A stretch of 62,579 bases of DNA from Bacillota bacterium. Lineage in GTDB: Bacteria; Bacillota; DTU025; MWDF01. The notes under the pieces were generated by a model, which saw nothing but the letters and a program-made list of their open reading frames with translations, searched no databases and was not told the DNA's origin. Positions within the stretch are counted from its first letter, which is position 1, and each line of letters opens with the position of its first letter. Where the stretch lies: NCBI GenBank assembly GCA_017994615.1, contig JAGOKM010000001.1, positions 1 to 62,579 on the forward strand, given 5' to 3'. This document shows positions 1,462-38,934 of the stretch, piece after piece. The position numbers were made by a program, and so were the translations under genes.

Positions 1462-2022
1462 ATGGGAAGAGGACCTTGGCGCGCCTTCATATCGCGCTTC
1501 TCTGCCTACGACATGGTGGTCATAGGGCTTATAGCGGCGCTGGGCATCGCGTCGAAGAACATCGTCGGCCCGCTGGCGCACCTTGTGACGGTGCCTATAG
1601 GTGTGCCCGGCGGGTCTCTTGCGGGCGGCTTCTACATGCTGTGGATAGTCCTTGCGAGGGCCTTCACGGGCAAGGCGGGCTCTTCGACGCTTGCAGCTGC
1701 CGTGCAGGCTATCATAGTCATTGCGACGGGCTCCTTCGGGTCCCACGGCGCGCTGACCGTGATAACCTATACTCTGCCTGGGATAGCGTGCGACCTTGCG
1801 ATGATACCGCATAAGAAGGACGGCGAGGGGCGGCTGCTCTGGTGCGCATTAGGCGGGATGGCAGCCAACATCGCCGGGTCCGTCGCGACGAACTATACTT
1901 TTTTCAGGCTGCCGCCACTGGCGCTGGCCTTGACTGCCGTCACCGCCGCGTTCTCGGGGGCGGCAGGCGGGGCCTTTGCAAGCGCGGCGTCTGACAGGCT
2001 GGGCAAGATAATGGGAAGATGA
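1462..2022 (+). CDS. ECF-transporter substrate-capture (S) component-like membrane protein, specificity unknown
   Basis: 186 aa, about 5-6 hydrophobic helices, small Gly/Ala-rich membrane protein directly upstream of EcfA/A'/T genes. Start abuts the nadE stop (TAGATG). Confidence 0.5.
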   Translation: MGRGPWRAFISRFSAYDMVVIGLIAALGIASKNIVGPLAHLVTVPIGVPGGSLAGGFYMLWIVLARAFTGKAGSSTLAAAVQAIIVIATGSFGSHGALTVITYTLPGIACDLAMIPHKKDGEGRLLWCALGGMAANIAGSVATNYTFFRLPPLALALTAVTAAFSGAAGGAFASAASDRLGKIMGR

Positions 2023-2035: not shown

Positions 2036-2551
2036 ATGAAGGGCAAGGACAGGTTAGCAATAGGAATCATCATCATCCTGGGGCTGCTCATGGTGGCCCT
2101 TGGGGCAATAAACTCCTGCGCCACCGAGCAGAAGCTCGAAGGCGACCTGGAAGTCCTCGTAAACGGCGAGAAGGTGGCTGCTTTCACCGCGACGGAGCTC
2201 TCCGCGATGAAATCATCCAGCTTCAAGGCCGTAATAAGGAGCTCCAGCGAGGGCACAAGCGAGGCGGAGTTCACCGGGGTCCCTGTAATGGACATCGTGA
2301 AGAAGGCATACCCTGCTGTCGCCGACGGGTACAAGGCCATAATCGTAAAGGCCGAGGACGGATACCAGACGATACTGGCGAAAGAGGAGGCCGAACTGGC
2401 TGACAACGCCTATATCTGCTACCTGATGAACGGCGCCCCGATAAAACCGAAAGCCCAGAAGGGGCACGGCCCCCTGCGCCTAATAATCCGCAACGATGAA
2501 TTCGGCCAGCGCTGGGTCAAGTACGTAAACAGGATAGAAGTCAAGAAGTGA
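2036..2551 (+). CDS. Membrane-anchored/exported protein with molybdopterin-oxidoreductase-like (Oxidored_molyb-like) domain
   Basis: N-terminal hydrophobic anchor. Motifs FTGVPV..., AEDGYQT, GPLRLII, QRWVKYVNRIEV recur in the proteins at 10439-11407 and 11424-11957. GGAGG lies 6 nt before the ATG at 2036. Stop overlaps the next gene's GTG (GTGA). Confidence 0.5.
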   Translation: MKGKDRLAIGIIIILGLLMVALGAINSCATEQKLEGDLEVLVNGEKVAAFTATELSAMKSSSFKAVIRSSSEGTSEAEFTGVPVMDIVKKAYPAVADGYKAIIVKAEDGYQTILAKEEAELADNAYICYLMNGAPIKPKAQKGHGPLRLIIRNDEFGQRWVKYVNRIEVKK

Positions 2552-3237
2552 AAGCCCTTTCGCTTTCGAAAACACGGTTCAGCTATCAAGGCGCCTTAAA
2601 GCCCGTGCTGGACGGCGTGGACCTGGACATGGAGCCGGGCCAGGCGGTGCAGGTCTCAGGCCCCTCAGGCAGCGGCAAGACCACGTTATGCCTCGTAGCG
2701 TGCGCTATCATCCCCTCCAGGCTGGTAGGCAAGTTCTCCGGAAAGGCCGAGCTGTTCGGGCAGGCGACTGCGAAGCTGGGCCCCTCGGGGGCTTCCGGCT
2801 ATGTAGGGTATGTGATGCAGGACCCGGAATTCTCCATGCTCATGCCCACCGTCGAGGACGAGATCGCCTTCGGCCTTGAGAACAGGGGATGGGAGCCGGA
2901 GAAGATAACCGCAAGGGTCGAAGAGCTCATGGCAGACCTGGGCATGCGGTCCCTTTCGGGGAGGAATCCGCAGAAGCTTTCGGGCGGCGAGAAACAGCTC
3001 GTGGCAATAGCCGCGGCCATCGCCCATCATCCGCCGCTTCTGGTCATGGACGAATCATTCTCGGGCCTGGATGAGGACAAGAGGGAGCTGGTCGTCTTCG
3101 AGCTGGGCCGGATGAAGAAGAACGGCACCGCCATCCTGATGGTGGAGCATCTGGGGATCGGCCGCATCGCCCCCTTCTGGCTTGACAGGAAGCTGTGGCT
3201 GCAGGACGGCTCGCTCACGGAGGCTCAAGGAAGTTGA
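2548..3237 (+). CDS. ECF/ABC transporter ATP-binding protein (EcfA-like)
   Basis: Walker A GPSGSGKTT, signature LSGGEKQ, Walker B LLVMDES. Confidence 0.8.
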   Translation: MKALSLSKTRFSYQGALKPVLDGVDLDMEPGQAVQVSGPSGSGKTTLCLVACAIIPSRLVGKFSGKAELFGQATAKLGPSGASGYVGYVMQDPEFSMLMPTVEDEIAFGLENRGWEPEKITARVEELMADLGMRSLSGRNPQKLSGGEKQLVAIAAAIAHHPPLLVMDESFSGLDEDKRELVVFELGRMKKNGTAILMVEHLGIGRIAPFWLDRKLWLQDGSLTEAQGS

Positions 3238-3911
3238 AGCAGGTTGTCTTCGAATCGGTGGTATTCTCCTACCCGGCGGACAGGGATTTTGCTCCCGCCC
3301 CCAGGGTGTTCGACAGGCTCAGCCTGACGTTGAAGCCGGGTCGCGCGTATGTGCTGCTCGGACCAAACGGATGCGGCAAGAGCACCTTCGCGAAGCTGAT
3401 GGCGGGCATCATATGCCCTGACGAAGGAAGGGTGCTAATCGGGGGGGACGAAGTCAGCAAAATGAGCCTGCCAGAGGTAGGCAGATCGGTCGGCATCGTC
3501 ATGCAGAACCCCTCAAGGCAGCTGATATGCTCCCGTCCTGTTGACGAGGTCGCATTCGGCCTCGTCCAAAGGGGCATGGACAGGGATGCCGCGGGCGCTT
3601 TCGCCGCCGAAGCCCTTGAAAGCTACGGCTTGTCGGAAGCGTCCGGCACATACACCCAGAGGCTGTCCAAGGGAGAGCAGATTAGGCTGGCCATGGCTTC
3701 CTGGACGGTCCTTAAGCCCGACTGGATGATACTGGACGAATCCCTTTCGAGCCTCGATATCTGCTCAAAGGGCATCGTGCTGGGCAAGGTGGCCGAGATG
3801 GCGGCCCAAGGGCACGGTGTCATCGTAGTATCGCATTCAAGTGAGCTTGCAGACGAGATGGGGGCGTTCAAGATAACGATGGAGAAGGGGGGCGCAGCCC
3901 TTGTCGGTTGA
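3234..3911 (+). CDS. ECF/ABC transporter ATP-binding protein (EcfA'-like)
   Basis: Walker A GPNGCGKST, degenerate signature LSKGEQIR, Walker B WMILDES. Likely TTG start overlaps the upstream TGA (the ORF track extends to 3195). Confidence 0.75.
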   Translation: MKQVVFESVVFSYPADRDFAPAPRVFDRLSLTLKPGRAYVLLGPNGCGKSTFAKLMAGIICPDEGRVLIGGDEVSKMSLPEVGRSVGIVMQNPSRQLICSRPVDEVAFGLVQRGMDRDAAGAFAAEALESYGLSEASGTYTQRLSKGEQIRLAMASWTVLKPDWMILDESLSSLDICSKGIVLGKVAEMAAQGHGVIVVSHSSELADEMGAFKITMEKGGAALVG

Positions 3912-4635
3912 GGCGGATCCAAGGTCAAAGCTTTTCGCCGTCTTCTGCCTTACCACGATGGCCCTGCTAATCAGGCAGGGGGAAAGCGCCCTTCTGCTGG
4001 CAGCGTTGACCATAGCCGCGCTCGCCCTATTCGGGGTAAGGCTGTCGGCCCCGTTCAGGATTCTCCGCAAGCTCGTCCCCGCCCTCCTGGTCGTATCGGT
4101 CCTTCAGGTCCTGCTCGTGAAGGCGGGGCGGCCGCTTCTTCTGCTGGGCAGCATTCGGCTGGTCACGACGGGGGGGCTGCAGGCGGCTTTGTTCATGGCG
4201 GCCAGGGTGGGCATAATCGCAAGCTGCGGTTCGATCCTCTACAGCATCGGTTTTTCGGACTTCCTTTTAGCGATGAGGTCCATTAGGGTGCCCTACGAGC
4301 TTGCCTTCATGTCGGCCATGGGGGCGAAATTCCTCCCCCTTCTGGCTGAGGAGATGTCCGACAGCCTGATATCTGCCCAGCTGAGGGGGGCCGACTTGAG
4401 GAGGATGGGATTGGTTCGAAGGCTCAGGCTCTATGTGGACGTCCTCATGCCGGCCACAGTGACAGCCATGTCGAGGGCCGAGGGCATATCATGGGCGCTT
4501 GAGCTGAAGGGCTTCAACCCGGGGAAGCCGAGGACGTACTGGCGCAAGCTGGAGATGGGCATGTCGGACTGGCTGGTCCTGCTGGCCGGGGCAATTGCGT
4601 TTGCCGCCTTCCTTGCAATCAACTACCGGAGGTGA
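3901..4635 (+). CDS. ECF transporter transmembrane (T) component, CbiQ/EcfT family
   Basis: 244-aa polytopic protein following two ECF ATPases. Arg-Gly coupling-helix-like motifs (MRSIRVP, AQLRGADL). Overlaps the upstream stop. Confidence 0.7.
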   Translation: MSVEADPRSKLFAVFCLTTMALLIRQGESALLLAALTIAALALFGVRLSAPFRILRKLVPALLVVSVLQVLLVKAGRPLLLLGSIRLVTTGGLQAALFMAARVGIIASCGSILYSIGFSDFLLAMRSIRVPYELAFMSAMGAKFLPLLAEEMSDSLISAQLRGADLRRMGLVRRLRLYVDVLMPATVTAMSRAEGISWALELKGFNPGKPRTYWRKLEMGMSDWLVLLAGAIAFAAFLAINYRR

Positions 4636-4642
4636 CCGAAAA

Positions 4643-5155
4643 GTGAAGGTGTTTGCCGTATCGGGCCTGCACAGCACGGGCAAGACAACGGTAGTCGAGC
4701 ACCTGGTAAGGGAGTTCGCATCAAGGGGCCTGAAGGTAGGCACCATCAAGGACATACACTACGAGGGGTTCACCATCGACAAAGAGGGCACCAACACCTG
4801 GAGGCATCGGCAGGCCGGTGCATCTGTTGTCGCAGCCAGGGGGCTTGATGAGACCGACGTCATATATGCCGGGAGGATGAGGATGGCAGAACTGGTGGAT
4901 CTCTTCGACGTCGACGTGCTAGTTATCGAAGGAGGCCACGATGAGCCCTATCCGAGGATAACATGCGGCTCAAACGCCGAAGAAGCGGATCTAAGGACCG
5001 ACGGCCACACTTTCGCGTTCTCAGGCGTAATGGGCTCGACGGTCAGATCCTATCGCGGCCTGAGGGCGTTCGATTGCACGTCGGAGGCGGCGGAACTGGC
5101 CGACCTTGCGCTGGTAAGGGCTTTAGCGGTCGACAAGACGGGTGGGCTTAAGTGA
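4643..5155 (+). CDS. mobB: Molybdopterin-guanine dinucleotide biosynthesis adapter protein MobB
   Basis: VFAVSGLHSTGKTT P-loop at the N-terminus, about 170 aa, KDIHYEGF...TNTWRH block typical of MobB. GTG start 7 nt after GGAGGTGA. Confidence 0.75.
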   Translation: MKVFAVSGLHSTGKTTVVEHLVREFASRGLKVGTIKDIHYEGFTIDKEGTNTWRHRQAGASVVAARGLDETDVIYAGRMRMAELVDLFDVDVLVIEGGHDEPYPRITCGSNAEEADLRTDGHTFAFSGVMGSTVRSYRGLRAFDCTSEAAELADLALVRALAVDKTGGLK

Positions 5156-5967
5156 GGCAGGACGCAGCGCATGCCCCCGGCGTGGAAGCCCTGGCCGGCA
5201 TTGTGGCCTCCGTGTGCGCTTCTTCCATCAGGGACGGCGACAGGCCGGAGGAGAGCCTGAGGGGAATCGAGGGCTTCATGGGGCTGCATCCTCTCGAATC
5301 GAGGAAGGGCAGGTGCTTCAAGCTCGACACTTGCAGTATGCCTGCGCTGTTCGTGAAGATCCTTCAGGACAGCTCAAAGGCGGCTAACGAGGCCGGGTTC
5401 GCAAAAAGGCTCAACGAGATGGGGATAAGCTGCCCGAAGGCCCTCTTCGTCGAAGGGCAGGTGCTCGTCAGGCTATATATCGAGGGGAAGACCGCGGCCG
5501 AAGAGCTGGACATGGCGATAGGATGGGGGGATGTCGGCTATGCCTCGTCTTTGTGCTCGAAGGTGGGCGCCATGCTGGCCGAAGCGCATAACCTGGATTC
5601 CCGAAACGGTCATGGGCTGGTCCTGAACGACCTGAACCTGCGCAACTTCATCGTGTCCGGAGCAAATTCGATAAGCCTCATAGACCTTGCCGACGCGGGC
5701 GACGGGGACCAGGGGAAGGACCTGGGAAGCCTTGTTGTACACATACTGACCCACAGGCCCGCCTTCACTGTGGCCTCCGAGGCAATGGCAGATGCGGCAT
5801 ACCGGGGCTACTTCGGGACGGCCGGATGGCCCGGCGCCCGCGCGAAAGCCGTGCAGGGGCTCAAGGAAGCACTTCTCGAAGCCGAGGCCAGGAGGCATTC
5901 GCCAGGGCTTTCAGAGCTTGCACGAGGCTATCTGAAGCATCTGGAAGAGACGGTAAAGGGCATGTAG
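5152..5967 (+). CDS. Atypical protein-kinase-fold protein (Bud32/RIO/Kdo-kinase-like)
   Basis: ALFVKIL (VAIK-like Lys), NEAGF (alphaC Glu), catalytic-loop-like LNDLNLRNFIV, DFG-like LIDLADAG. GTG start overlaps the mobB stop (GTGA). Confidence 0.45.
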   Translation: MRQDAAHAPGVEALAGIVASVCASSIRDGDRPEESLRGIEGFMGLHPLESRKGRCFKLDTCSMPALFVKILQDSSKAANEAGFAKRLNEMGISCPKALFVEGQVLVRLYIEGKTAAEELDMAIGWGDVGYASSLCSKVGAMLAEAHNLDSRNGHGLVLNDLNLRNFIVSGANSISLIDLADAGDGDQGKDLGSLVVHILTHRPAFTVASEAMADAAYRGYFGTAGWPGARAKAVQGLKEALLEAEARRHSPGLSELARGYLKHLEETVKGM

Positions 5968-5979
5968 GAGGGGCATGGC

Positions 5980-6531
5980 ATGGGTCTTAGCACAGGCAAA
6001 CTAACCGTAGTCGCCCTTTTCACGGCGCTGATGATAGCTGGCGCTTACATATCGGTCCCTTTAGCTGGCACCGTGCCTTTGACCTTCCAGCCGTTCGTAA
6101 GCATACTGGCCGGCGCTGTAATAGGGCCCAGGCTCGGGTTCCTGGCAGTGGCTGCCTATGTGGCGATAGGATTGGCAGGCGTGCCGGTCTTCGCAGGTTT
6201 CACAGGCGGCATTGTCAAGGTGCTGTCTCCTTCATTCGGTTTCATACTCGGCTTCCTGGCCGCAACCGTAGTGACCGGCGCAATCGCCTACAAAGGGAAG
6301 CCGTCTTTCCCCAAGCTCCTTGCCGCCAGCGTGGCAGGGATTGCCGCCATCTACCTTGCGGGCATCCCATACATGCACATAATACTTGTCACCGTTTCCG
6401 GCAAGGACTGGGCATTTGCGGCCACGGCGCTGAGCATGGCGCCGTTTTTCGTAAAGGACATGCTCCTGGCCGGAGTCGCGGCCTTGATAGCTGCAAGGCT
6501 GTTGCCGATAGCCAGGAGGCTCATGAGATAA
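5980..6531 (+). CDS. bioY: Biotin transporter S component BioY
   Basis: 183 aa; N-terminal ...ALFTALMIAGAYISVPL...PLTFQPF...LAGAVIGPRLG pattern characteristic of BioY. Confidence 0.8.
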   Translation: MGLSTGKLTVVALFTALMIAGAYISVPLAGTVPLTFQPFVSILAGAVIGPRLGFLAVAAYVAIGLAGVPVFAGFTGGIVKVLSPSFGFILGFLAATVVTGAIAYKGKPSFPKLLAASVAGIAAIYLAGIPYMHIILVTVSGKDWAFAATALSMAPFFVKDMLLAGVAALIAARLLPIARRLMR

Positions 6532-6574: not shown

Positions 6575-7837
6575 TCACTGCCTTATCCCAAGGGCTTCGA
6601 GCATTTTGGCGAACAGCTCGCTGTTGTCATAACGCCCCGCGAAAATGGAAGAGCCGGGGCCTTCCGCGGTCACAAGCACGTTGGAAGCCGTGTGCCCTCC
6701 GCTGCCCCAGGCTATGTTGGCCTTCCGGGAGATCAACGCGCCGATGGACCTAGCCCAGTCGCTGGAGCTTCTGATCGACTCGGCCTCTTCTTCGGACATC
6801 TCGTACCCTGTTGAGGCCTTTACTATCGAAACCAGAGAGGCAGGTTTATCCTCAGCGAGCCAGGCCATCTTCATAGAACTTGACTTCACCCTCGCGAGGA
6901 AGGGCACGTCGATCCTGTATCCCTGGTTGGCGCCGAGGGACAGGCCGCCAGTCTCGTGGTCGGACACGACCAGTACCAGGGTATCGCCGTCCTTGCGGGC
7001 GAATTCCAGGGCCTTTGCGACGCCCATGTCGGCGGCGATTACGCCCTTTAAGGCGGCAGCTGCGTCGTTGTCGTGAGAAGCCCCGTCCACGCTGCCCGTC
7101 TCGGCAAGGAGGATGAAGGGTCTACCCTTTCCGGAAAGCTTGTCCAGCGCCGCTGATATGATGTCGACGAATGCTGCGGCATTGCTTCCGGCGTCTATCT
7201 CCATTTGAAGATATGCGTCATCTAGAAGGCAGATAGCCGGCAGTCCGCCGGAAGCCAGGGACTTCAGGTCATAGTAGGCGTTGAAGCGTGGCTTCGAATC
7301 GGCGGACAGCATGGACTGCTGGATGAGCGGGTCGACATAGCGGGCCCCTCCGCCTATCGCAAGGTCGAGGCTAGATGACATGAGCTGCTTTGCGATGTTC
7401 CTGTATTCCGCCCTGGTAAGGGAGTTTGCGTACATCGCCGCCGATGTCGCGTCGTACAGCTCCGAATTGGTAGCGATGCCGCACGAGAATCCGGCCTTGG
7501 ATGCGATGTCCATGACGCTTTCTAGCTTGTTCAGGTCGTGGTCGTACCCGATCGCCGCATTGTAGGTCCGCTTACCCGTGAACATGGCGGTCGCTGCCGC
7601 CGCCGAATCTGTGATATCGGAACCGTAGCTGGACGTATCCATCATCCCCAGGTGACTCATGCGGTTCATCGAAAGGCCGCCCTTCACAGCAAGCTCTCCG
7701 AGCTGCCTGTGCGCAGGGCCCATGCCGTCCACGACGATTATTATGAGGTTTCTTGCTAGCCCTTGAGCAGATGCAAGCGGAAAAGCTGCCATCAGCAGCA
7801 GGATGGCTGCGGCAAGCCTGACATGTCTGTTCTTCAT
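6575..7837 (-). CDS. phoA: Alkaline phosphatase (PhoA family), exported
   Basis: Signal peptide; VVDGMG, nucleophile box TDSAAAATAMFTGKRTYNAAIG, SDHETGGL, GGHTASNV. Confidence 0.85.
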   Translation of the reverse strand: MKNRHVRLAAAILLLMAAFPLASAQGLARNLIIIVVDGMGPAHRQLGELAVKGGLSMNRMSHLGMMDTSSYGSDITDSAAAATAMFTGKRTYNAAIGYDHDLNKLESVMDIASKAGFSCGIATNSELYDATSAAMYANSLTRAEYRNIAKQLMSSSLDLAIGGGARYVDPLIQQSMLSADSKPRFNAYYDLKSLASGGLPAICLLDDAYLQMEIDAGSNAAAFVDIISAALDKLSGKGRPFILLAETGSVDGASHDNDAAAALKGVIAADMGVAKALEFARKDGDTLVLVVSDHETGGLSLGANQGYRIDVPFLARVKSSSMKMAWLAEDKPASLVSIVKASTGYEMSEEEAESIRSSSDWARSIGALISRKANIAWGSGGHTASNVLVTAEGPGSSIFAGRYDNSELFAKMLEALGIRQ

Positions 7838-10231: not shown

Positions 10232-10261
10232 TTGTAAAGACATTATCGCACAATGTATCAT
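10232..10261 (+). promoter_or_regulatory. Possible sigma70 promoter for the structured leader
   Basis: TTGTAA (10232-10237), 18-nt spacer, TATCAT (10256-10261). Confidence 0.3.
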
Positions 10262-10274
10262 CGTTTGTAGATAA

Positions 10275-10374
10275 CCGCGCTCCGAGCCGGAAGGCCTAAA
10301 GCACACAGCCAGGGTCCCCGGCCGACAGGGCCAAGGTGGAAACGCCTTGACCTCCCTTTTGGAAAGGATGGCGG
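10275..10374 (+). promoter_or_regulatory. Candidate Moco/Tuco (molybdenum/tungsten cofactor) riboswitch aptamer
   Basis: Blocks CUCCGAGCC (10280-10288), CCUCCC (10351-10356) and GGAAAGG (10361-10367). GAAA-capped hairpin AAGGUG/CGCCUU (10333-10348). Closing helix 10275-10283 with 10366-10374. Downstream genes encode Moco-domain-like proteins. Called from memory of the motif, not from a covariance-model search. Confidence 0.55.
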
Positions 10375-10389
10375 CAACCGGCCTTTTTT

Positions 10390-10425
10390 GCCGTGCCCTT
10401 CCTGAAGGGCACGGCATTTCATTTC
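10390..10425 (+). terminator. Leader terminator (expression platform of the candidate riboswitch)
   Basis: Perfect 11-bp stem GCCGTGCCCTT/AAGGGCACGGC, 4-nt loop, then ATTTCATTTC. It lies immediately before the RBS AGGAGG (10426-10431). The 5' arm can alternatively pair with 10361-10375. Confidence 0.65.
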
Positions 10426-10438
10426 AGGAGGCATGCAG

Positions 10439-11407
10439 ATGAATCCAAGGGTCCGGATGAATCCCGCTTTGCTTGGCGCTACGATCGCCCTCGTACTCGT
10501 CCTGGCGTTACCCGCAGTGACGCACGCCGCGGGGGCTGTAATCAAGCTCACCGACAGGCTTGGCACGTCCCAGTCGGTCGACCTGCTGTCCTTGCCCCAG
10601 CTGGACTACAAGGCGTCCTACAAGCGCTCGACCGGGGCTATAGTTGGGCCGTTCAGCTACAGGGGGCCTTCGCTGCTCTCGGTCCTGGCGCTCATGGGCG
10701 GGATGAACGAGAACGACGCGGTGCAGCTAATCTCCGAGGACGGATACAGGATGAGCCTCACTTACGGACAGGTCCATGGGGAGGTCACCGTCTACGACGG
10801 GAAGGGCGAAGCCATGGAGGATTTCGAAAGGCCGATTCTCATCCTTGCGGTTTCATCCGACAGCCCCGCATTCGAACAGGAGGGGGTAAGGGCGGTATTT
10901 GCCGGCCCGAAGGCGCCCCTGACCGACGGGCACACTTGGGTCAAGTGGATCGTCGAGGTCAAGGTGATCCCCATGGTTAAGGAATGGGAGCTGGAGCTGG
11001 AGGGGGTGGTCAAAGCGAAGATGGACAGGTCGACCTTCGAAAGCCTGGCCACATGCCCGCTCTCCCCGCACCCCGGAGCCGACTGGGGCGCGACCGACGG
11101 GACATATGCGGGGGTCCCGCTTTGGACGCTGGTGTCCGTCGTAGACAACGTGGAGCCGGAGAACTCCCATTACACATACGACAGGGCGCTTGCCGCCTCG
11201 GGATATACCGTAAGGGTGACGTCCAAGGACGGAACATACGTCGATTTCGACTCGAAGGACCTCATTTTCGAATCGGGGGTCTTCGTAGCTTTCACAAAGG
11301 ACGGGAAGCTCATCGGGGAGGAAGACGGGCCGCTGGTGCTCACAGGGCCCAGATCCCCCAGGACTCTCAGGAATGTCGTATCGATAAAGCTCATAGGCGT
11401 TAAATAG
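10439..11407 (+). CDS. Exported protein with two tandem molybdopterin-oxidoreductase-like domains
   Basis: Sec-type signal peptide (...ALPAVTHAAGA). Two copies of the F/Y-x-G-P...xDGY...GPL...W/R-x-V-x-I-K pattern (SEDGYRM...HTWVKWIVEVKV; SKDGTYV...GPLVLTG...LRNVVSIKL). ATG at 10439 lies 7 nt after AGGAGG. Confidence 0.5.
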   Translation: MNPRVRMNPALLGATIALVLVLALPAVTHAAGAVIKLTDRLGTSQSVDLLSLPQLDYKASYKRSTGAIVGPFSYRGPSLLSVLALMGGMNENDAVQLISEDGYRMSLTYGQVHGEVTVYDGKGEAMEDFERPILILAVSSDSPAFEQEGVRAVFAGPKAPLTDGHTWVKWIVEVKVIPMVKEWELELEGVVKAKMDRSTFESLATCPLSPHPGADWGATDGTYAGVPLWTLVSVVDNVEPENSHYTYDRALAASGYTVRVTSKDGTYVDFDSKDLIFESGVFVAFTKDGKLIGEEDGPLVLTGPRSPRTLRNVVSIKLIGVK

Positions 11408-11423
11408 GACGGAGGGAAGATCC

Positions 11424-11957
11424 ATGTCGAAGAGAAGGTACATAGCGCTTGCAGCAATGCTCGTAATCGTAATCGCCGCCACGGCCGCCTCGGCGGAGGG
11501 CCTGGCGGTAAGGCTCGTCAAAGGGGACGCAGCCCCCTTGACAGTGGAGCTGGAGAAGCTCGAAAAAGTAGAGGGCGTCGCCTATTACAGGAACTCCAAG
11601 GGTGTTGTCTCGGGCCCGTTCAAGATAAAGGGGGTCAAGCTGGCCGACCTGCTGAAGCTGGCAGGGGGCATGACGGCGGAGGAGAAGCTCATCTTCACGG
11701 CCTCGGACGGCTACGTGACCGAGCTCAGCTTCGCGCAGGCCAACGGGGAGCTTGCGGCCTCCAGGCCGGACGGAGCCGCCTTCGAAGGCAAACCGGCGCT
11801 GGTGCCCGTTATAATCACATGGTCCGAGCCTGACATGGCGAAGGACCTGCCGAGGCTCGCCTTCATCGCCGATGTGGAGGGAGGCCTCATGACGGAGAGC
11901 AAATACTGGGCGAGGAACCTGGTGGAGATCAGGATAGCCCCCGCCGACAGGAAGTAA
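11424..11957 (+). CDS. Exported single-domain molybdopterin-oxidoreductase-like protein
   Basis: Signal peptide with KRRYIAL; FKIKGVKLADLL, ASDGYVT, KYWARNLVEIRI motifs paralogous to 2036-2551 and 10439-11407. No Cys residue. Confidence 0.5.
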   Translation: MSKRRYIALAAMLVIVIAATAASAEGLAVRLVKGDAAPLTVELEKLEKVEGVAYYRNSKGVVSGPFKIKGVKLADLLKLAGGMTAEEKLIFTASDGYVTELSFAQANGELAASRPDGAAFEGKPALVPVIITWSEPDMAKDLPRLAFIADVEGGLMTESKYWARNLVEIRIAPADRK

Positions 11958-12095
11958 GGGGCCGCGGGACAATCAGGAAGGGGCGCTTGATTAGGCGCCC
12001 CTTCGTTACATACCTGTCCAATAAAGGATATAATCAGATTAAGAGAGATGAAGGAGTGCCGCCGGCAAGCCGGCGGTTGCAACGGAGGTGCCCAG

Positions 12096-13811
12096 ATGGC
12101 GGATGTCCTCCGCATTTCGATAATACAGACGCAGGCCTACGACATGCTCAGCCCGCACCACGCGGACAACGAGATGTTCTACATGCTCGAGATGGAAAGG
12201 GATTTCAAGCCCGACATAGTGCTGCTGCCCGAGTGCGTATGGCCCGGCTATTTCCTTCACGGCTGGGACTATTCCATGCAGGAGAAGGCCGACGACGTGA
12301 AAGCGCGCCTCGCCTCCACCGCAAGGAAGATGGGCTGCTTCATAGTCGCAGGCCTTCCCGAACCAGACAAGAGCGGGCCGACGGCGCAGATGCTGCCCTT
12401 CATGGAGGGCTGGATGCAGCCGGCAGCAAGCCCAATCTACAATGCGGCACTCGCCTGGAACAAGGCTGGCAGGCTCGTAGCCTCGGGCAGGAAGATAAAC
12501 CTCTGGCACTTCGACGGTAAATGGTTCAAGAAGGGCGAAGGACCGGTCGTCTTCAGGACCAAATGGGGTAATATTGGCCTTATGGTATGCGCCGACGCCA
12601 GGATGCCCGGCATAGTGGAGAAGCTGGCCGAGGACGGCGCAAGGCTCGTCTTGAACTGCACAAACTGGGTCACATCGGGCCCCGACAGGTCGAAGCTGAC
12701 CAACCCGCAGGCAGACTACCTTATAAGGGTGAGGGCCGTCGAGAACAACCTCTGGATCGCCTCCGCCAACAAGGTGGGGCTGGAAGACGGGCTTATCGCG
12801 TTCTGCGGGGGCTCCCAGCTGGTCGCCCCTGACGGGACGCTCGTGAAGAGGGCGTCGGCCGACAAGGTCGAGGCGATCAGGGCCGAGATCCCGCTGGACG
12901 AACAGGGAAGGATAGAGCTTCCCGAGCCTAAGATAGTAAGGCTGAGCAACCCTGCATTCTACGAATCTGCGTCAGGGCTTACCGACGAAGGGGGGAATGG
13001 CACCCCCGAGCCTGATGGAGGAAGGATACAGGGTTTCCCGCAGAAGCCGTCGCACCCTTATGTAGCGGTGGTGCAGCAGTCCCCGGAATCTGCCGGACAG
13101 CCGGGCACAGGGCTTGTCGCCAGGGCCGCCATGAAGAGGCTGGCTGCCAAGATAGATGCCCTCGGCGCGGACATAGTCGTGTTTTCAGGGACCTTCGAAG
13201 CCATGACGGGGCTGGACCCGCAGGCGAGGGCGCTGCTTGACGAGCCCACTATGAGGGGTAAGATGCTCGTCATACCCCGCGGCAGGTGCGAGAAGTGCGG
13301 CAACCCTATTGGAGGGGCCGACGTGGTGTTCGACGGAAAGTCGCTGCAGCAGTACGGCGCCCTGACCGTGCGCGAGGGGACGAGGGGCTGCCCCAACTGC
13401 GGATTCGGGGATTCGGTGGCGACTGCGCCCGTAGTGCAGACGCCGTTCGGCCCTCTGGGGCTGGTGTTGGGCAGGGAGGGCCACGAGCACAGGATGGTGG
13501 CGAGCTTGTCAGGCATGGGCGTCAGGATGTTCGCGTGGATAACGTCGGGCTTAGTGCCGGAACATGACATAATCACGAGGGCCAGGGCCATGGAGAGCAG
13601 GGTATGGATGATAACGGCCAACCCGGCTATGATGATAGCCAGGCAGCCGGGCCTAAGGGCTCTTTCGGGCCTTAGCCTTATCGCCGAGCCTGACGGGAGG
13701 GTGGCCTGTTCGGCGTTCCCCGACGAGGAGCAGATAGTTGCGGCATACTGCGACCTGTGCCTCTGCGAGAGGAGGGACGTAGTCCCCGGCACCCTGGCAA
13801 TGGGCCGATGA
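12096..13811 (+). CDS. Fused double carbon-nitrogen hydrolase (nitrilase superfamily) protein; second domain degenerate with zinc ribbon
   Basis: Domain 1 has the E-K-C triad contexts LLPECVWPGY, GRKINLWHF, LMVCADARMPG. Domain 2 has DIVVFSG and LVLGREG in place of the Glu and Cys boxes, plus a CEKC...CPNC insert. ATG at 12096 follows GGAGGTG. Confidence 0.65.
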   Translation: MADVLRISIIQTQAYDMLSPHHADNEMFYMLEMERDFKPDIVLLPECVWPGYFLHGWDYSMQEKADDVKARLASTARKMGCFIVAGLPEPDKSGPTAQMLPFMEGWMQPAASPIYNAALAWNKAGRLVASGRKINLWHFDGKWFKKGEGPVVFRTKWGNIGLMVCADARMPGIVEKLAEDGARLVLNCTNWVTSGPDRSKLTNPQADYLIRVRAVENNLWIASANKVGLEDGLIAFCGGSQLVAPDGTLVKRASADKVEAIRAEIPLDEQGRIELPEPKIVRLSNPAFYESASGLTDEGGNGTPEPDGGRIQGFPQKPSHPYVAVVQQSPESAGQPGTGLVARAAMKRLAAKIDALGADIVVFSGTFEAMTGLDPQARALLDEPTMRGKMLVIPRGRCEKCGNPIGGADVVFDGKSLQQYGALTVREGTRGCPNCGFGDSVATAPVVQTPFGPLGLVLGREGHEHRMVASLSGMGVRMFAWITSGLVPEHDIITRARAMESRVWMITANPAMMIARQPGLRALSGLSLIAEPDGRVACSAFPDEEQIVAAYCDLCLCERRDVVPGTLAMGR

Positions 13812-13828
13812 TTGGGAAGGTGTTTAAT

Positions 13829-14755
13829 ATGAGGAAAGGCTGGGCGATCCTTGCGCTGTTGTTCATAGTGGTCCTTCAGGCAACGGGGATGGAGGGCTGC
13901 AAAGCCGCGCCTAAGCCGAAGGTGGTGGCCCTAAACGGCGTGACCGGACTGGGGCTCGCCCTTCTGTTCGAATCTGGCGACTACGAAATCGAAGTCGGCA
14001 AATCCGCGGACGTCGCCGTGGCGAGGCTCACTTCGGACGGGGCGGAGATCGCCGCTCTTCCCGTATCCACGGCAGCCCTGTTGAGGAACAAGGGCGTCCC
14101 CATAAGAATCGCAGCCGTGACCAATTACGGCTCCCTTTACGTCGTATCAAGGGCTGAAGGAGGGCTCCTGCAGAGCGCTTCCTCCTACCTTGGCGTGCCC
14201 GGCAAGGGAACCATGCCCGACGTCACCCTTGCCATCCTGCTTGCAGAGTACAAATCGGCCTCCTCAGGCGTGCAGCACCATTCTTCGCCGGTGGAGCTGG
14301 CAAACCTCCTTCTAGCTGGCAAGGCGCAGGCGGCGCTTCTGCCGGAGCCGTGGGTTAGCCAGGTCCTGGCCAAGGACGCGGGGCTTAGGATCACATCTGA
14401 CATACAGGCCGAATGGAGGGCGAAGTTCGGCTTCGACTACCCGCTCAGCTGCGTTGTGGTCACGGAGAAGTTCGCCGACGAGAGGCCCGATGCCCTAAAG
14501 AAGCTGCTTTCGGACATAGAGAAGAGCGTAGACTGGGTGAAGTCGAACCCTGGCAAGGCGGCGGCCATGGCTGCCGAAAAGCTGTCGATGGATCCGGCCG
14601 CCACAGAAAAGGCCGTCCCGAGGTGCAACTTCGCCTACCTGGACGGGCCTGCGGCGAAAGCGGCATCTTCCCAGTTCTACAGCAAAGTGCTGCAATATGC
14701 TCCGACGATGATCGGGGGGAAGCTTCCGGATGAGGCGTTCTACCTGGACAATTAG
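13829..14755 (+). CDS. ABC transporter substrate-binding lipoprotein (NMT1/NitT-TauT-like)
   Basis: Lipoprotein-like signal (…ATGMEGC), periplasmic binding-protein-like sequence, followed by a matching permease and ATPase. Confidence 0.6.
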   Translation: MRKGWAILALLFIVVLQATGMEGCKAAPKPKVVALNGVTGLGLALLFESGDYEIEVGKSADVAVARLTSDGAEIAALPVSTAALLRNKGVPIRIAAVTNYGSLYVVSRAEGGLLQSASSYLGVPGKGTMPDVTLAILLAEYKSASSGVQHHSSPVELANLLLAGKAQAALLPEPWVSQVLAKDAGLRITSDIQAEWRAKFGFDYPLSCVVVTEKFADERPDALKKLLSDIEKSVDWVKSNPGKAAAMAAEKLSMDPAATEKAVPRCNFAYLDGPAAKAASSQFYSKVLQYAPTMIGGKLPDEAFYLDN

Positions 14756-15509
14756 CCTCTTTTCGGCCATCGGCCTGGCAAGCCTGGCCATCGCATGGTG
14801 GGCGGGTTCTGTATTGCTGGGCAACAGCCTTCTGCTGCCTACCCCTTCAGAGACCATATCGGCGCTGTCGGGCATAGTATCCGACCCCGGTTTCGCAGGA
14901 GAGCTCTTAGCGACCGCATACAGGGTGTTCAAGGGGTTCGCCCTGTCATTCCTGCTGGGATCTGCGGCCGGCGCCGCCTGCGGCTTCTCATGGAAGGCCA
15001 AGGCGTTGCTTTCCCCAGCCCTTGCCGCATTGAGGACCGTCCCCTTCATTTCGCTTTCCATACTGGCGATCATCTGGTTCCCGTCGGGGACGGTGCCGGT
15101 GTTCGTCGCTTTCCTGATGGCGTTCCCGATCGTGGCGTCCAGCGTGATGGAAGGCATCGGATCTGTTGATACGGATCTGGAAGAGCTCTCCTCGGTATAT
15201 TCGGTGCCCTTTTCGAAAAGGGCTTACAGGCTGTACCTTCCGTCCGTGATGCCATATGTGGTTTCGGCGGCATCGCAGTCTCTGGGCATGTCCTGGAAGA
15301 TTGTGGTCTCAGCCGAGGTGCTTTCGATGCCGGCAAGGGGTATAGGCGGCAGGATGGATTCCGCGAAGGCGTTCCTCGAGATGCCGGAGCTGTTCGCATG
15401 GACGCTGCTGCTGGTGGCGCTGGGTTTCGCGACAGACGCCCTGCTGGAGGCGATTAGGGCGAGGGCCTTCGGCTGGAGGGAGGGCCGGCTATGGCAGAGG
15501 TTAAGGTAA
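14730..15509 (+). CDS. ABC transporter permease (NitT/TauT family)
   Basis: 259-aa polytopic protein with an EAA-like loop (LEELSSVYSVPFSKRAYRLYLP). Confidence 0.7.
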   Translation: MRRSTWTISLFSAIGLASLAIAWWAGSVLLGNSLLLPTPSETISALSGIVSDPGFAGELLATAYRVFKGFALSFLLGSAAGAACGFSWKAKALLSPALAALRTVPFISLSILAIIWFPSGTVPVFVAFLMAFPIVASSVMEGIGSVDTDLEELSSVYSVPFSKRAYRLYLPSVMPYVVSAASQSLGMSWKIVVSAEVLSMPARGIGGRMDSAKAFLEMPELFAWTLLLVALGFATDALLEAIRARAFGWREGRLWQRLR

Positions 15510-16225
15510 CCGGCCTGTGCAAATCATACGAAGGCAGGCCTGTCTTCTCAGGGGTGGACATGACTTTCCTGCAAGGGGAAGTCACAGCCGTCCTTGGGCC
15601 ATCAGGGAGGGGCAAGACGACGCTCATAAGGGTGCTTTGCGGCCTTGAAAAGCAGGATTCGGGGGAGGTAAGGATGCCGCCCGGCATGGGATGCTCGGTG
15701 GCATTCCAGGAGCCCAGGCTGCTGCCATGGCTCACAGTCGACGGGAACATGGAGTATTGCCTGGGCAGACATGGTGCCGACAGGGCCCGCGCCTTGCTTG
15801 ACGAGCTGGGCCTGAAGGACTCGTTCGGAAGGTACCCCGGACGACTGTCGGGGGGAGAGCAGCAGAGGGTCAACCTGGCCCGCGCGCTCGCATCGGACGG
15901 CAAGCTGCTCCTTCTAGACGAATCGTTCAACTCCATAGGCCTGGCCATGAAATCGTGGCTGCTTCCCATGCTCAGGAAGAGGGCATCATCAGAAGGAAGG
16001 ACGACGGTCCTGGTAACGCACAGCCCGCTTGACGTGGCGCTGATGGCCGACAGGTTCTACCTGATGGACAGCGAGGGGCGAGGGGCCTCGGGTCCGTTCG
16101 ACATAAGGCTGGAGGACGATGCGCGAAGGCTCGAAGATGAGGCCACCGGCAGGGAGGTCCACAGGCTGATGATGCTCATGTCTGAGCTGGAAACAGGAGG
16201 TATCACTGATGATGCCCTCGCCTGA
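15491..16225 (+). CDS. ABC transporter ATP-binding protein (NitT/TauT family)
   Basis: Walker A GPSGRGKTT, signature LSGGEQQR, Walker B LLLLDES. Confidence 0.8.
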   Translation: MAEVKVTGLCKSYEGRPVFSGVDMTFLQGEVTAVLGPSGRGKTTLIRVLCGLEKQDSGEVRMPPGMGCSVAFQEPRLLPWLTVDGNMEYCLGRHGADRARALLDELGLKDSFGRYPGRLSGGEQQRVNLARALASDGKLLLLDESFNSIGLAMKSWLLPMLRKRASSEGRTTVLVTHSPLDVALMADRFYLMDSEGRGASGPFDIRLEDDARRLEDEATGREVHRLMMLMSELETGGITDDALA

Positions 16226-16904
16226 GAGCAGGTTCGGAAGGGAAGAGCTGCTGATAGGAAGCGCCGGGCTAAAAAGGCTCGCCTCCTCGCATGTGGCCGT
16301 CTTCGGAATAGGAGGCGTGGGTTCCTTCTGTGCGGAAGCCCTGGCGAGGGCCGGCGTGGGAGAGCTCACGCTGGTCGATTCGGACGCCGTCCGGCTCAGC
16401 AACGCCAACAGGCAGCTCGTGGCCCTCGAAAGCACCATGGGGGCCCCCAAGGTGGAGGTCATGGCAAGGCGGGCGCTTGACATAAACCCTTCGCTCAAGG
16501 TCCATGCAGTGCAGGAGTGGTTTGACGAAGCAAATTCCGAAAGGATGCTTTCGACGGATTACGACTATGTCGCGGACGCGATAGACAGCGTATCCTCCAA
16601 ACTGCTGCTGATAGCCTCGTGCATTGGAAAGGGCATCCCGGTCGTATCTTCGATGGGGGCGGGCAACAAGCTTGACGCGACAGGGTTCAGGATAGCGGAC
16701 ATCTCGGATACCCACACTTGCCCGCTTGCCAAGGTCGTGAGGACGGGCCTCAGGAAACGTGGGATAGAAAAGGGGCTCAAGGTGGTCTTCTCTGTATCGA
16801 AGCCGGTGGATAGGCCTGCAGGCCCTCCCGGCAGCATATCCTATGTGCCTCCCGTAGCGGGGCTCCTCCTGGCGCAGGCGGTCATCGAAGGCCTGCTGGG
16901 CTAG
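16209..16904 (+). CDS. tcdA: tRNA threonylcarbamoyladenosine dehydratase (ThiF/E1-like)
   Basis: RFGREELLIG...VAVFGIGGVGS dinucleotide-binding motif, about 230 aa, TcdA/CsdL-like. Confidence 0.7.
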   Translation: MMPSPESRFGREELLIGSAGLKRLASSHVAVFGIGGVGSFCAEALARAGVGELTLVDSDAVRLSNANRQLVALESTMGAPKVEVMARRALDINPSLKVHAVQEWFDEANSERMLSTDYDYVADAIDSVSSKLLLIASCIGKGIPVVSSMGAGNKLDATGFRIADISDTHTCPLAKVVRTGLRKRGIEKGLKVVFSVSKPVDRPAGPPGSISYVPPVAGLLLAQAVIEGLLG

Positions 16905-23277: not shown

Positions 23278-23417
23278 CCAGCATTCCTCCAGAGCCGCTG
23301 TGCAGGATAAGCACCGGCGGCAAAGAATATTACCAAGTAAGAGTCTACCTATAACATATTACGTCAAAAAACCGTAAAACCTTCCAACTCGGATGGAAAA
23401 AAGCCGGAGGCTTGCAA

Positions 23418-25310
23418 ATGTGGCCCTACATCAGAAGGCATATCTTGATATCTCTGCTCCTATCGGCATTGGTCTTCTTCCCGGGGTGCGTACCGCAGGA
23501 GACATGCATGGTGGTAATCTACGGAAGCGTCACGGCCTCCTCAACGGGCTCAGGTGTGCCAGGGGTCGGCATAAAAGTGGAGGAGAAGGGCATCTCAGCT
23601 TTAAGCGACGCGGCAGGGGGCTTTGAGACCGCGCGGTTCGGCATGAAGCCGGGCAGGCTTACCGTCACCTTCAGCAAGGCAGGTTACCTCGACGTAATAA
23701 AGCAGGTGCCTGTAAGCACAAGCGGATGGATACAGGTCGATGCGACATTGTTCCCGGAATCGAAAGGCCGAGCCCTTGTGGACTTCGAGTTCACGCTGGT
23801 AAACGACTATGAAGCGGGCACTTTCCTGGGTGATTACGACATACCGGTCCCAACGGCTGCTCTTTCTTATGCATCCGCACAGGCACCGGTCGAAGCCGAT
23901 GGCGTGGTCATATACCCGGCAAGGGGTACGGGCTTCGGGACGAGCATGGAGTCCCTCGCCTCCTACAAAGCCAGGGTCATAGAATCGGATCCTGTTGCAG
24001 GTTATATGCTGGTCGGAGTGCCGGAGGGCAAGGACGCCGAAGGCTTCTCAAGGGAGCTGATGAGCCAGCCATGGGTGGACTTCGCCGAACCAGACTATGT
24101 ATGCTTCCCGCTCGGTGGATACGTCCCGGACGATTTCCTGTGGCCCATGCAGTGGGGGCCGAGGATGGTGAGCATGCACAGGGCATGGGAGTACGGCTTC
24201 TCCGCAGATCCCGTTACGATAGCCGTCATTGACACTGGCGTGTTCGCGGGACATCCTGACCTGGCCGGCAGGTGCCTTCCGATGCTCAACACCATAAATT
24301 CAGACATGACTGACAACAGCGGGCACGGCACGCATGTCGCAGGGATAATCGGCGCCTCGATGGACAACATCGAAGGTGTGGCGGGGGTGAACAAAGCTGC
24401 GGCCATCCTCCCCGTCAAGGCCCTTGAGAAGACAGGGCTCATCACGTCCGGCACCATGACAAGCGTTTCCAGAGGGGTGAGGCAGGCTGCGGAAAACGGC
24501 GCAGATGTCATAAACATGAGCCTCGGATGGCCGCTCATCTATTCCGACTGCGCCTTCAGGCTGCTGAAAGAGGCGCTGGACTATGCCGATTCGATGGGCA
24601 TCGCGCTTGTGGCCGCATCAGGGAACGACGGCTCGGCCACGGACCTTACCATGCCTGCCAAGTATGACAAGTGCTTCGCGGTGTCAGCGGTGGGCCCGTT
24701 CTATTCTCCCCCTTCCTATGCCAACACAGGGCCGGGCACGGACATATTCGCACCCGGCGGAGGAAGCGGCGTGCAGTCCATAGTAAGCACCGTGCCTTAC
24801 ACGAAAAGTCCTAGCGGATATGCGAGGATGGCCGGCACTTCGATGGCAGCGCCGCACCTTTCCGCGATAATGGGGGCGCTCATCGCTGATGGGTTGACCG
24901 TAGACGGCGCCAAGTCGGCAATACTTGCCTCGTCCCAGTACATAGAGGGCTACGATACGGGACTGGTCAACGCATACGCAGCCCTTGCGGGCGCCAGGGG
25001 GGGCCGGGCCATATTCTGGCTGTGCGACGACGAGGGGATGCCGCTGACCGACGCGTTCAGGGGATCAGACGGCTCGAGGGACATGACGGTCTTCGGGGAA
25101 TACGAGGGGCGCGCATGGGTTTGCGGCTGGATAGGTCTTACAGGGGCGGAAGAACCGCGATACGGAGACTTCCTGGGGTTGGCCGAGGTCTACATAGAAA
25201 GCGGGACGACCGCCGAATTGCCATCCATGCTAAGGTTGAGCTTCTATGAGCCTGCGGCCTTGGGCCAGGTTGATATAAAACTCGTGCCGGCCGTCAAGGA
25301 GATGCGGTAG
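23418..25310 (+). CDS. S8 subtilisin-like serine protease lipoprotein with N-terminal carboxypeptidase-regulatory-like domain
   Basis: Lipobox-like FFPGC. Asp box AVIDTGV, His box HGTHVAGII, Ser box GTSMAAPH. ATG at 23418 lies 7 nt after GGAGG. Confidence 0.85.
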   Translation: MWPYIRRHILISLLLSALVFFPGCVPQETCMVVIYGSVTASSTGSGVPGVGIKVEEKGISALSDAAGGFETARFGMKPGRLTVTFSKAGYLDVIKQVPVSTSGWIQVDATLFPESKGRALVDFEFTLVNDYEAGTFLGDYDIPVPTAALSYASAQAPVEADGVVIYPARGTGFGTSMESLASYKARVIESDPVAGYMLVGVPEGKDAEGFSRELMSQPWVDFAEPDYVCFPLGGYVPDDFLWPMQWGPRMVSMHRAWEYGFSADPVTIAVIDTGVFAGHPDLAGRCLPMLNTINSDMTDNSGHGTHVAGIIGASMDNIEGVAGVNKAAAILPVKALEKTGLITSGTMTSVSRGVRQAAENGADVINMSLGWPLIYSDCAFRLLKEALDYADSMGIALVAASGNDGSATDLTMPAKYDKCFAVSAVGPFYSPPSYANTGPGTDIFAPGGGSGVQSIVSTVPYTKSPSGYARMAGTSMAAPHLSAIMGALIADGLTVDGAKSAILASSQYIEGYDTGLVNAYAALAGARGGRAIFWLCDDEGMPLTDAFRGSDGSRDMTVFGEYEGRAWVCGWIGLTGAEEPRYGDFLGLAEVYIESGTTAELPSMLRLSFYEPAALGQVDIKLVPAVKEMR

Positions 25311-25377
25311 GATTGTCTTGAACAAAGGTTTATAAGGGACGTCAGATAAGTAGGCCATCAAGATTGGGGGTCATCCT

Positions 25378-38795: not shown

Positions 38796-38809
38796 GATGC
38801 CCGGCATTG

Positions 38810-38849
38810 AAAGGGCCGTGCCCGGTTGGAGCACGGCCCTTTTTCTTTT
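38810..38849 (+). terminator. Intrinsic terminator
   Basis: AAAGGGCCGTGC/GCACGGCCCTTT stem followed by TTCTTTT. Confidence 0.75.
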
Positions 38850-38934
38850 ATGCAAAGCTAAATATTCATGTGATGAAGGAATCGCGCCGGAATGCATTGA
38901 AGAGATAAACATCTTGATCCGTGGAGGTGATCTT

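Follow-up and report, generated by a model that had tools for sequence, protein, structure and literature searches.

The closest described relative of the proteins considered here is PruR, a small exported protein of Agrobacterium, Vibrio, and Klebsiella (PDB 7kos, 7kou, 7kom, 7kp2, and 7rkb) that consists of almost nothing but the SUOX fold and lacks the Cys residue serving as the molybdenum (Mo) ligand in that superfamily (PMC11194511). The pterin of PruR is stacked between a C-terminal Trp and a Tyr that is preceded, two positions earlier, by an Asn, and the Trp of a PW motif on a truncated hairpin replaces the Mo-ligand Cys; the only known ligands of the SUOX fold are the molybdenum cofactor (Moco) and free pterins (PMC11194511). 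Here, we describe a family of proteins of the same general kind encoded in a 62,579-nucleotide stretch of DNA from a Bacillota bacterium (lineage Bacillota; DTU025; MWDF01; assembly GCA_017994615.1, contig JAGOKM010000001.1, positions 1 to 62,579 of the forward strand), the whole of which is referred to as the window. The family is represented by two adjacent genes at 10439-11407 and 11424-11957 and by a third at 2036-2551, all on the forward strand. The evidence tips the balance somewhat toward the view that their products are extracytoplasmic ligand-capture modules of an energy-coupling factor (ECF) importer that belongs to the regulon of Moco and of the tungsten (W) cofactor (Tuco), and the cargo would be a Moco/Tuco-related compound, probably a pterin.

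Several other known systems share single features with this locus. The SUOX enzymes, namely sulfite oxidase, SorA, SoxC, and YedY/MsrP, have the same fold and the motifs xGVPL, DG, NG..L....PLRLvvPG, and WVK. Moco carrier and storage proteins such as the Moco carrier protein (MCP) of Chlamydomonas are likewise non-catalytic and are proposed to hold Moco, but they are cytoplasmic, have an unrelated fold, and have no link to transport. ECF vitamin importers, such as YkoEDC for thiamine, have the S-A-A′-T architecture and the PF09819-type S component that are also found here, and the CbiMNQO and NikMNQO importers with NikK/NikL have additional membrane-anchored extracytoplasmic proteins encoded in their operons. 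Well-established cases of ECF importers controlled by the riboswitch of their own cofactor are those for thiamine, riboflavin, B12, queuosine, and folate. The only characterised PF09819 relative known to us is YkoE. It binds thiamine (PMC5037267). ECF vitamin importers are typically under a riboswitch for the cofactor that is the end product (PMC3766115). ModABC, TupABC, and WtpABC are importers repressed by the Moco/Tuco riboswitch (PMC2408646) but, unlike the system described here, belong to the type I ATP-binding cassette (ABC) importers and use periplasmic binding proteins of an unrelated fold. The present locus differs from the ECF vitamin importers in its accessory component, a SUOX-fold domain that is sometimes fused to the S component.

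To our knowledge, Moco and Tuco are regarded as compounds that every prokaryote makes for itself and that are too labile for exchange; for this reason, the Moco-riboswitch regulons known to us comprise biosynthesis genes, metal oxyanion importers, and cofactor-using enzymes, and no cofactor importer. A comparative survey of riboswitch regulons does not include Moco among the riboswitch-controlled coenzyme uptake systems (PMC3766115), the only pterin transporter to appear in a 2026 review of bacterial pterin signalling is one for reduced folates (PMC13259868), and in the literature on ECF importers and Moco, molybdopterin, or tungstate we found no earlier description of such a link.

The 10439-11407 gene encodes an exported protein of 322 residues with two SUOX-like domains, recognised from profiles, an AlphaFold2 model, and Foldseek. 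Profile comparison places domain 1 at residues ~31-180 (nucleotides 10529-10978) and domain 2 at residues ~181-322 (nucleotides 10979-11404). Its start codon is favoured over an ATG at 10433 because it lies 7 nucleotides after an AGGAGG sequence at 10426-10431, and the resulting 322-residue product agrees with public gene calls (P0001). The 11424-11957 gene, which encodes a Cys-free, single-domain exported protein of 177 residues, follows after a gap of 16 nucleotides with its own ribosome-binding site and is co-transcribed with the 10439 gene. The product of the 2036-2551 gene is also a single-domain SUOX-like protein and is putatively membrane-anchored through a lipobox-like sequence.

The open reading frames agree with the proposal of the initial annotation, made from the sequence alone, that these three genes carry four copies of one domain, and profile comparisons together with structure prediction link all four. 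The 11424 protein matches the domain 1 region of the 10439 protein (residues ~20-180) directly in BLASTP, with E = 1e-17 and 27% identity across 164 residues, and the profiles of the two families align by hhalign with a probability of 99.7% (E = 1e-26). The domain-1 family aligns with the 2036 family over the whole domain at 95.5% (E = 1.5e-8), domain 2 with domain 1 at 86.6% (E = 4.5e-6), and domain 2 with the 2036 family at 54% (E = 1.3e-4). A direct BLASTP comparison of the 2036 and 10439 proteins gave nothing significant, and the direct hhalign comparison of the 11424 and 2036 families was weak (probability 3.9%); the kinship of the 2036 protein therefore needs the domain-1 family as a bridge, and its relation to the 10439 protein is visible only through profiles and structure.

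The assignment to the molybdopterin-oxidoreductase superfamily, which the initial annotation had proposed to check with Pfam models, was borne out directly for one protein and indirectly for the others. PF00174 matches the 2036 protein with 47.8 bits (cut-off 24) and was found repeatedly in several wider relatives, but direct scans with Pfam and NCBIfam left the 10439 and 11424 proteins without a match, and these two are tied to the superfamily through profile links. Against the PDB, a broad domain-1-type profile matched SorA (1.8e-6), PruR 7kom (8.6e-6), and SoxC (1.3e-5), and the matches of a broad domain-2-type profile, to plant sulfite oxidase at 1.2e-3 and to SorA at 2.3e-3, cover the C-terminal half. 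A narrow profile of the 2036 family produced ankyrin false positives in this search, which the broad cross-family profile avoided. AlphaFold2 models of the 10439 and 2036 proteins, with mean pLDDT values of 80.7 and 83.8, both gave PruR as the top Foldseek match, at target-normalised TM-scores of ~0.6 and 0.75, respectively (PruR 7kom for the latter). Behind PruR came the Mo domains of SorA, SoxC, and plant sulfite oxidase; these completed the list of hits at E ≤ 0.001 for the models, and nitrate reductase followed at 1.5e-3. All four domains are thus predicted to adopt the SUOX Moco-binding fold of the PF00174 superfamily. The initial annotation had left room for a match to a different, well-characterised family, and PruR comes near to being one; as a Cys-less pterin binder, it supports a binding function.

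Word-indexed homologue searches returned 16-22 close relatives per protein, all without assigned names. With the 10439-family profile as the query, HMMER retrieved 974 clusters from 1.84 billion representative proteins at a threshold of E ≤ 1e-3, and 240 when the threshold was set to E ≤ 1e-30. These wider relatives are arrays of domain-1-type and domain-2-type units with up to 10 domains, as in P0055, in which six domain-1-type units are followed by four domain-2-type units. Relatives of 1,000-3,100 residues with up to ten units occur among P0055-P0203 (e.g., P0055, P0068, and P0104), some with additional PKD and DUF2341 domains.

The cysteine content of the proteins, described in the initial annotation as nearly nil, is of interest for its position rather than its amount. 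The 11424 protein has no Cys, the 10439 protein has one (Cys206), and the 2036 protein has two (Cys28 and Cys128). With a Cys share of 1.1% in the 29 other window proteins, the probability of finding no Cys in 177 residues is ~0.14, and a Cys-free protein of this length is by itself not statistically unusual. Neither domain 1 nor the 11424 protein, both described as Cys-free in the initial annotation, has the Mo-ligand Cys of the SUOX hairpin, and the 2036 protein lacks it as well; Cys128 of the last sits in a strand and is missing from the relative P0054. Domain 2 departs from the early description in that its single Cys206 is invariant among orthologues together with His211 (Cys206-x4-His211), and over 308 domain-2-type units the Cys and His are conserved at 70% and 56%. 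The pair lies ~19 residues ahead of the YAGVPLW motif of domain 2 and could be a metal or cofactor ligand. The ligand Cys of SUOX enzymes such as SorA presumably lies at roughly this place; the HMM alignments to SorA and plant sulfite oxidase begin past the Cys hairpin and so leave Cys206 out.

The residues that would contact a pterin have fared better than the metal ligand. The shared motifs quoted in the initial annotation were confirmed in a cross-family alignment of 23 sequences, all of which have the D of (A/S)xDGY, while its Y and the G of x-G-V/P are conserved in at least 90%. Among 141 domain-1-type domains the D is conserved at 100% and the Y at 94%, and the W and K of a TDGHxWxK motif at 83% and 90%. 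HMMER aligns the N-D-Y of PruR 7kom with the D-G-Y of the family, and the family Trp matches the C-terminal Trp of PruR by motif position only; a Tyr in an N/D-x-Y setting and a C-terminal Trp may be available for pterin stacking in both. The hairpin sets the two families apart. In PruR it is truncated and carries PW, whereas in the window family it is long, in both AlphaFold2 models (strands 55-62/68-76 in the 10439 protein and 61-69/73-83 in the 2036 protein), and has a K/R-S-S/T-G tip that reads K/R/N-S-S/T/K-G over the family and contains neither Cys nor PW; HMMER sets the PW of 7kom opposite R-S or T-G of this hairpin. On this combination of a conserved D-G-Y and Trp with a long hairpin free of Cys and PW, the domain-1-type domains appear to have kept the pterin-stacking residues and lost the metal ligand without being PruR in detail. 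PruR is further distinguished by its proteobacterial distribution, as opposed to Bacillota and Archaea, and the window family by its tandem arrays and its fusions to S components.

All leaders were classed by eye, without a signal-peptide predictor. That of the 10439 protein (...LVLVLALPAVTHA|AG, ending VTHA|AG) looks Sec-type and has no RR, and that of the 11424 protein (...AATAASA|EG) also looks Sec-type. The latter contains KRRY, the weak twin-arginine resemblance pointed out in the initial annotation, but orthologues have RK, KR, or GR in its place and a twin arginine is not conserved, in keeping with the proposal of Sec-type export. The 2036 leader ends in a conserved lipobox-like VNSC with Cys28 (also given as ...GAINS|C) and resembles that of a lipoprotein. 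None of the three proteins appears to have the twin-arginine translocation (Tat) signal of the catalytic, extracytoplasmic members of the superfamily. The idea of a Tat-exported enzyme was rejected, given the Sec- and lipoprotein-type leaders and the lack of a conserved twin arginine.

Directly upstream of the 10439 gene lies the cofactor riboswitch that the initial annotation had implied. A full-length match to the Moco/Tuco riboswitch family RF01055 (55.8 bits, gathering score 36) occupies 10268-10385 on the forward strand and ends 54 nucleotides before the 10439 start codon. It is of the P3-less variant, the model positions of the P3 stem being deleted. P3-less aptamers are associated with tungsten-cofactor metabolism (Regulski et al. 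2008, PMC2408646). The aptamer is preceded by a sigma-70-like promoter candidate, TTGTAA-18-TATCAT, at 10232-10261 (forward strand; 9 of 12 positions in a consensus scan, a pattern match only), and it is followed at 10389-10426 by an intrinsic terminator found in a terminator scan, with a 12-bp G+C-rich hairpin extending to 10416 and a U-rich tract. A P3-less RF01055 aptamer precedes the homologue at all seven bacterial loci examined (L011-L017), which comprise six close relatives (metagenome-assembled genomes, MAGs, of Bacillota/Clostridia) and the Clostridia bacterium DTU025 (L017), whose protein is 34% identical. The terminator hairpin is kept with compensatory changes across 8 loci.

Until the 3′ arm of the terminator has been transcribed, its 5′ arm can form an alternative helix with the 3′ part of the aptamer (GGAAAGGAUGGCGGCA), with a folding energy of -16.2 kcal/mol for the antiterminator pairing and -23.4 kcal/mol for the terminator hairpin. 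Because a terminator is coupled to this alternative pairing, the cofactor would repress the genes, and the arrangement fits a transcriptional OFF switch. A further promoter-like site (10 of 12 positions) lies at 12005-12034, after the 11424 gene, which suggests that the riboswitch-controlled unit consists of only these two genes.

The third paralogue connects the family to transport, since the 2036 gene is encoded between the S and A genes of an ECF operon on the forward strand. This operon comprises a PF09819-family S component (1462-2022; 34.6 bits, cut-off 25.2), two ABC ATPases, A (2548-3237) and A′ (3195-3911), both PF00005, and a T component, CbiQ (3901-4635; PF02361). It continues with MobB, the molybdopterin-guanine dinucleotide synthesis protein B (4595-5155; PF03205, 83.3 bits), for which gene callers place the start at ~4643 and which is the last Mo/W-related gene of the operon; a search of the remaining window for additional Mo/W genes was negative. 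A kinase-fold protein of the APH family follows on the same strand (5152-5967; PF01636, 33.2 bits). MobB is syntenic in L001, L013, and L014, with a MobB fragment at the edge of L016, and the kinase-fold gene in L011, L013, L014, and L016. No solved structure is related to the S component by sequence. The 10439/11424 pair lies 5.8 kb from the operon, and owing to this distance its membership of the ECF system rests on paralogy and on other genomes.

In those genomes the linkage is direct. A multi-domain homologue adjoins ECF genes homologous to those of the window in at least seven distinct distant loci, spanning Clostridia, three archaeal lineages, and three metagenome contigs, with the visible part of the S/A/A′/T set limited in each by the extent of the contig. 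The neighbours are S, A-A′, and T in the Clostridia bacterium DTU025 (L017; also L026/L027), a Thermococci MAG (L018; also L028/L029), a Hadarchaeota MAG (L021), and a metagenome contig (L034), S at two further metagenome loci where the contig ends (L030 and L033), and A and T at an archaeal locus (L004). Besides ECF genes and MobB, the neighbours include peptidases and a CN-hydrolase/ABC cluster. In L017, L018, L021, and L034, an S component homologous to that of the window (1462-2022) is fused to a C-terminal transmembrane helix and a SUOX-like domain, with 59-66 bits for PF09819 and 18-25 bits for PF00174. The fused domain matches the HMMs of domain 1 and of the 2036 family in L018, L021, and L034; that of L017 gives no match. 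The window S and 2036 genes are the split form of this fusion.

A second type of fusion joins an N-terminally anchored calcineurin-like metallophosphoesterase to a SUOX-like domain within the ECF operon, at 6119-7438 in L017, 2254-3768 in L030, and 1624-3114 in L033, on the basis of Pfam matches for the first two and of aligned sequence for L033. In L017, a single riboswitch (5865-5994) heads a tight operon that encodes the phosphoesterase-SUOX fusion, the protein of domains 1 and 2, the S-SUOX fusion, A-A′, and T, so that in this organism the ECF importer itself belongs to the Moco/Tuco regulon. The preference of the initial annotation for binding or capture proteins over enzymes thus receives strong independent support from an ECF neighbourhood and from fusions that it had not seen. 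As a separate observation, the SUOX-ECF operon of two archaeal phyla is preceded, at a distance of between a few hundred bases and ~2 kb, by a gene of the Sulfatase family (alkaline-phosphatase superfamily) whose product shows no obvious signal peptide (L018 2383-3852 and L021 4010-5401).

A general model of the system is as follows. When the cofactor is plentiful, it would bind the P3-less RF01055 aptamer, the terminator at 10389-10416 would form, and the two genes would be silent; when it is scarce, the 3′ part of the aptamer would pair with the 5′ arm of the terminator and allow read-through. The 10439 and 11424 proteins would then be exported unfolded through the Sec pathway and, outside the membrane, would bind a Moco/Tuco-related compound, most likely a molybdopterin-type pterin released by other anaerobes, whether as the cofactor, its dinucleotide form, a precursor, or a breakdown product. 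The ligand would be handed to the lipid-anchored 2036 paralogue and the PF09819-type S component for import by A-A′-T, and MobB, possibly with the adjacent kinase-fold protein, would feed the imported compound into cofactor maturation. The 10439/11424 pair may represent a starvation-induced addition to a constitutive, anchored 2036 protein. Re-phosphorylation of an imported dephospho-pterin by the kinase-fold protein is speculative, indeed pure conjecture.

We infer a molybdopterin-type cargo from the known ligands of the fold, the conserved stacking residues, the phosphoesterase fusion, and the presence of MobB in the operon. The phosphoesterase-SUOX fusions, MobB, and the kinase-fold gene hint at an organophosphate substrate rather than an oxyanion. 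A thiamine-type substrate was rejected, as there is no thiamine pyrophosphate riboswitch and the regulator is RF01055. As a tentative generalisation, whose chances we place a little short of even, strictly anaerobic Bacillota and several archaeal phyla would possess a dedicated salvage importer for the Mo/W cofactor or molybdopterin-type precursors. In it, Cys-less SUOX-fold domains that are free, lipid-anchored, arranged in arrays, or fused to the S component would cooperate with that component and capture the pterin extracellularly, the anchored phosphoesterase would trim the pterin ahead of import, and in bacteria a Tuco-type OFF riboswitch would control the system. The named source lineages are anaerobes, and an oxygen-labile pterin could for this reason persist outside cells.

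A number of points weigh against a capture role in a dedicated cofactor importer. ECF importers normally work without a soluble binding protein, and in a monoderm cell nothing would keep the two proteins from diffusing away once their cleavable signal peptides are removed. Because Moco and molybdopterin are highly sensitive to oxygen, salvage would be restricted to anoxic habitats. The ECF operon of the window has no riboswitch of its own in an RNA family scan of the window, and it is followed by BioY, a biotin S component (5980-6531, the third gene past the ECF T gene), so that the A-A′-T module may be shared or general rather than dedicated. Beyond the window, 13 archaeal or metagenomic loci were negative for a Moco riboswitch, the Thorarchaeota-type loci (L003, L019, L020, and L031) have no ECF genes within the flanks examined, and the giant PKD-containing surface relatives suggest more general binding roles for the domain. 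Domain 2 lacks the C-terminal Trp and carries the invariant Cys206-x4-His211, and the AlphaFold2 models were computed without cofactor.

The main rival explanation, which we consider unlikely, is that the ECF system imports tungstate or molybdate and that the Cys-less SUOX-like domains capture WO4(2-) or MoO4(2-) in the former substrate or oxyanion pocket. Basic residues of domain 1 are kept, with R151 at 84%, K169 at 90%, and H165 at 66%, and ECF importers for metal ions (Co, Ni) exist. The known transporters under Moco riboswitches are oxyanion importers, e.g., modABC and tupABC (PMC2408646; PMC3766115), and the P3-less aptamer type correlates with tungsten use (PMC2408646). However, Moco and free pterins are the only ligands known for the SUOX fold (PMC11194511), and the best conserved residues of the domains are the pterin-stacking Tyr and Trp. 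Moreover, the S component is of the PF09819 type and not the CbiM/NikM type, and an extracytoplasmic phosphoesterase fused to the binding domain has no role in the uptake of an oxyanion.

Slightly more doubtful again is the view that the domains are general extracellular binding or structural repeats without a specific cofactor role, in which case the ECF and riboswitch context would reflect another substrate. The breadth of the family speaks for it, with 974 clusters that include many arrays of 4-10 domains and 1,000-3,000 residues, some with PKD, and with several loci that have no ECF neighbours. This view leaves unexplained the Moco/Tuco-specific riboswitch that precedes the gene in two bacterial lineages despite a protein identity of only 34%, the S-component fusions in four lineages, the location of MobB within the operon, and the conservation of the pterin-site residues.

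It is improbable that the proteins are PruR-like sensors that bind an excreted non-Moco pterin and signal to a membrane partner without any part in transport. PruR is their best structural match and is likewise small, exported, and Cys-less (PMC11194511). PruR works with a DcpA-type cyclic di-GMP enzyme and takes small non-Moco pterins as its signal, whereas the partners here are ECF genes and MobB, no DcpA-type GGDEF/EAL or TorS/BaeS-type partner occurs among the neighbours, the regulator is a Moco/Tuco riboswitch, and the long hairpin with its K/R-S-S/T-G tip stands in place of the defining features of PruR, its PW motif and truncated hairpin.

Least credible of all are true extracytoplasmic Mo/W oxidoreductases of the MsrP/YedY or sulfite-dehydrogenase kind, with Ser or Cys206/His211 as the ligand and a riboswitch that couples expression to cofactor supply, since membership of the SUOX superfamily, the invariant Cys206-x4-His211 at roughly the place of the ligand Cys, and the occurrence of some Moco riboswitches before cofactor-using enzyme genes (PMC2408646) are set against Sec-type leaders that imply export before cofactor insertion without a conserved twin arginine, the loss of the hairpin Cys in three of the four domains, the absence of a dimerisation, haem, or YedZ-type partner domain, tandem arrays and ECF fusions that are not features of enzymes, and a terminator platform whose fit with repression by the cofactor is the wrong logic for a cofactor-dependent enzyme, so that catalysis is not expected.

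Some further genes of the window are of note. An exported alkaline phosphatase was identified by Pfam scan at 6575-7837 on the reverse strand. Downstream of the 11424 gene, behind the promoter-like site at 12005-12034, a cluster at 12048-16904 encodes a 587-residue protein of which two stretches match CN_hydrolase, an SsuA/NMT1-like binding protein, a permease, an ATPase, and a 231-residue ThiF-family protein; its gene order is kept in six of six close relatives and not in L017, and it could serve thiamine/hydroxymethylpyrimidine (HMP)-type salvage or include a MoeB-like activator. Two adjoining subtilase genes of ~630 residues, the first with an N-terminal CarboxypepD_reg domain, lie at 23412-27279 and are followed by tRNA genes at 27414 and 28945, and three consecutive open reading frames of 264, 172, and 202 residues at 38797-40740 have no Pfam match.

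There is a substantial chance that a cofactor-salvage system for Moco/Tuco is described here for the first time. If the proposed capture and import of a Moco/Tuco-related compound is correct, it would be the first prokaryotic uptake system for Moco/Tuco, which would become a shared 'vitamin' in anoxic communities, and the cross-feeding of cofactor or pterin in anoxic habitats would be directly testable. The ECF transporters would gain both a substrate class and a type of accessory domain that are new for them, and close to 1,000 protein clusters that lack annotation would be assigned a function. The idea recently derived from PruR, that a Cys-less SUOX fold is a pterin receptor, would be carried over from proteobacterial signalling to nutrient capture in Firmicutes and Archaea.

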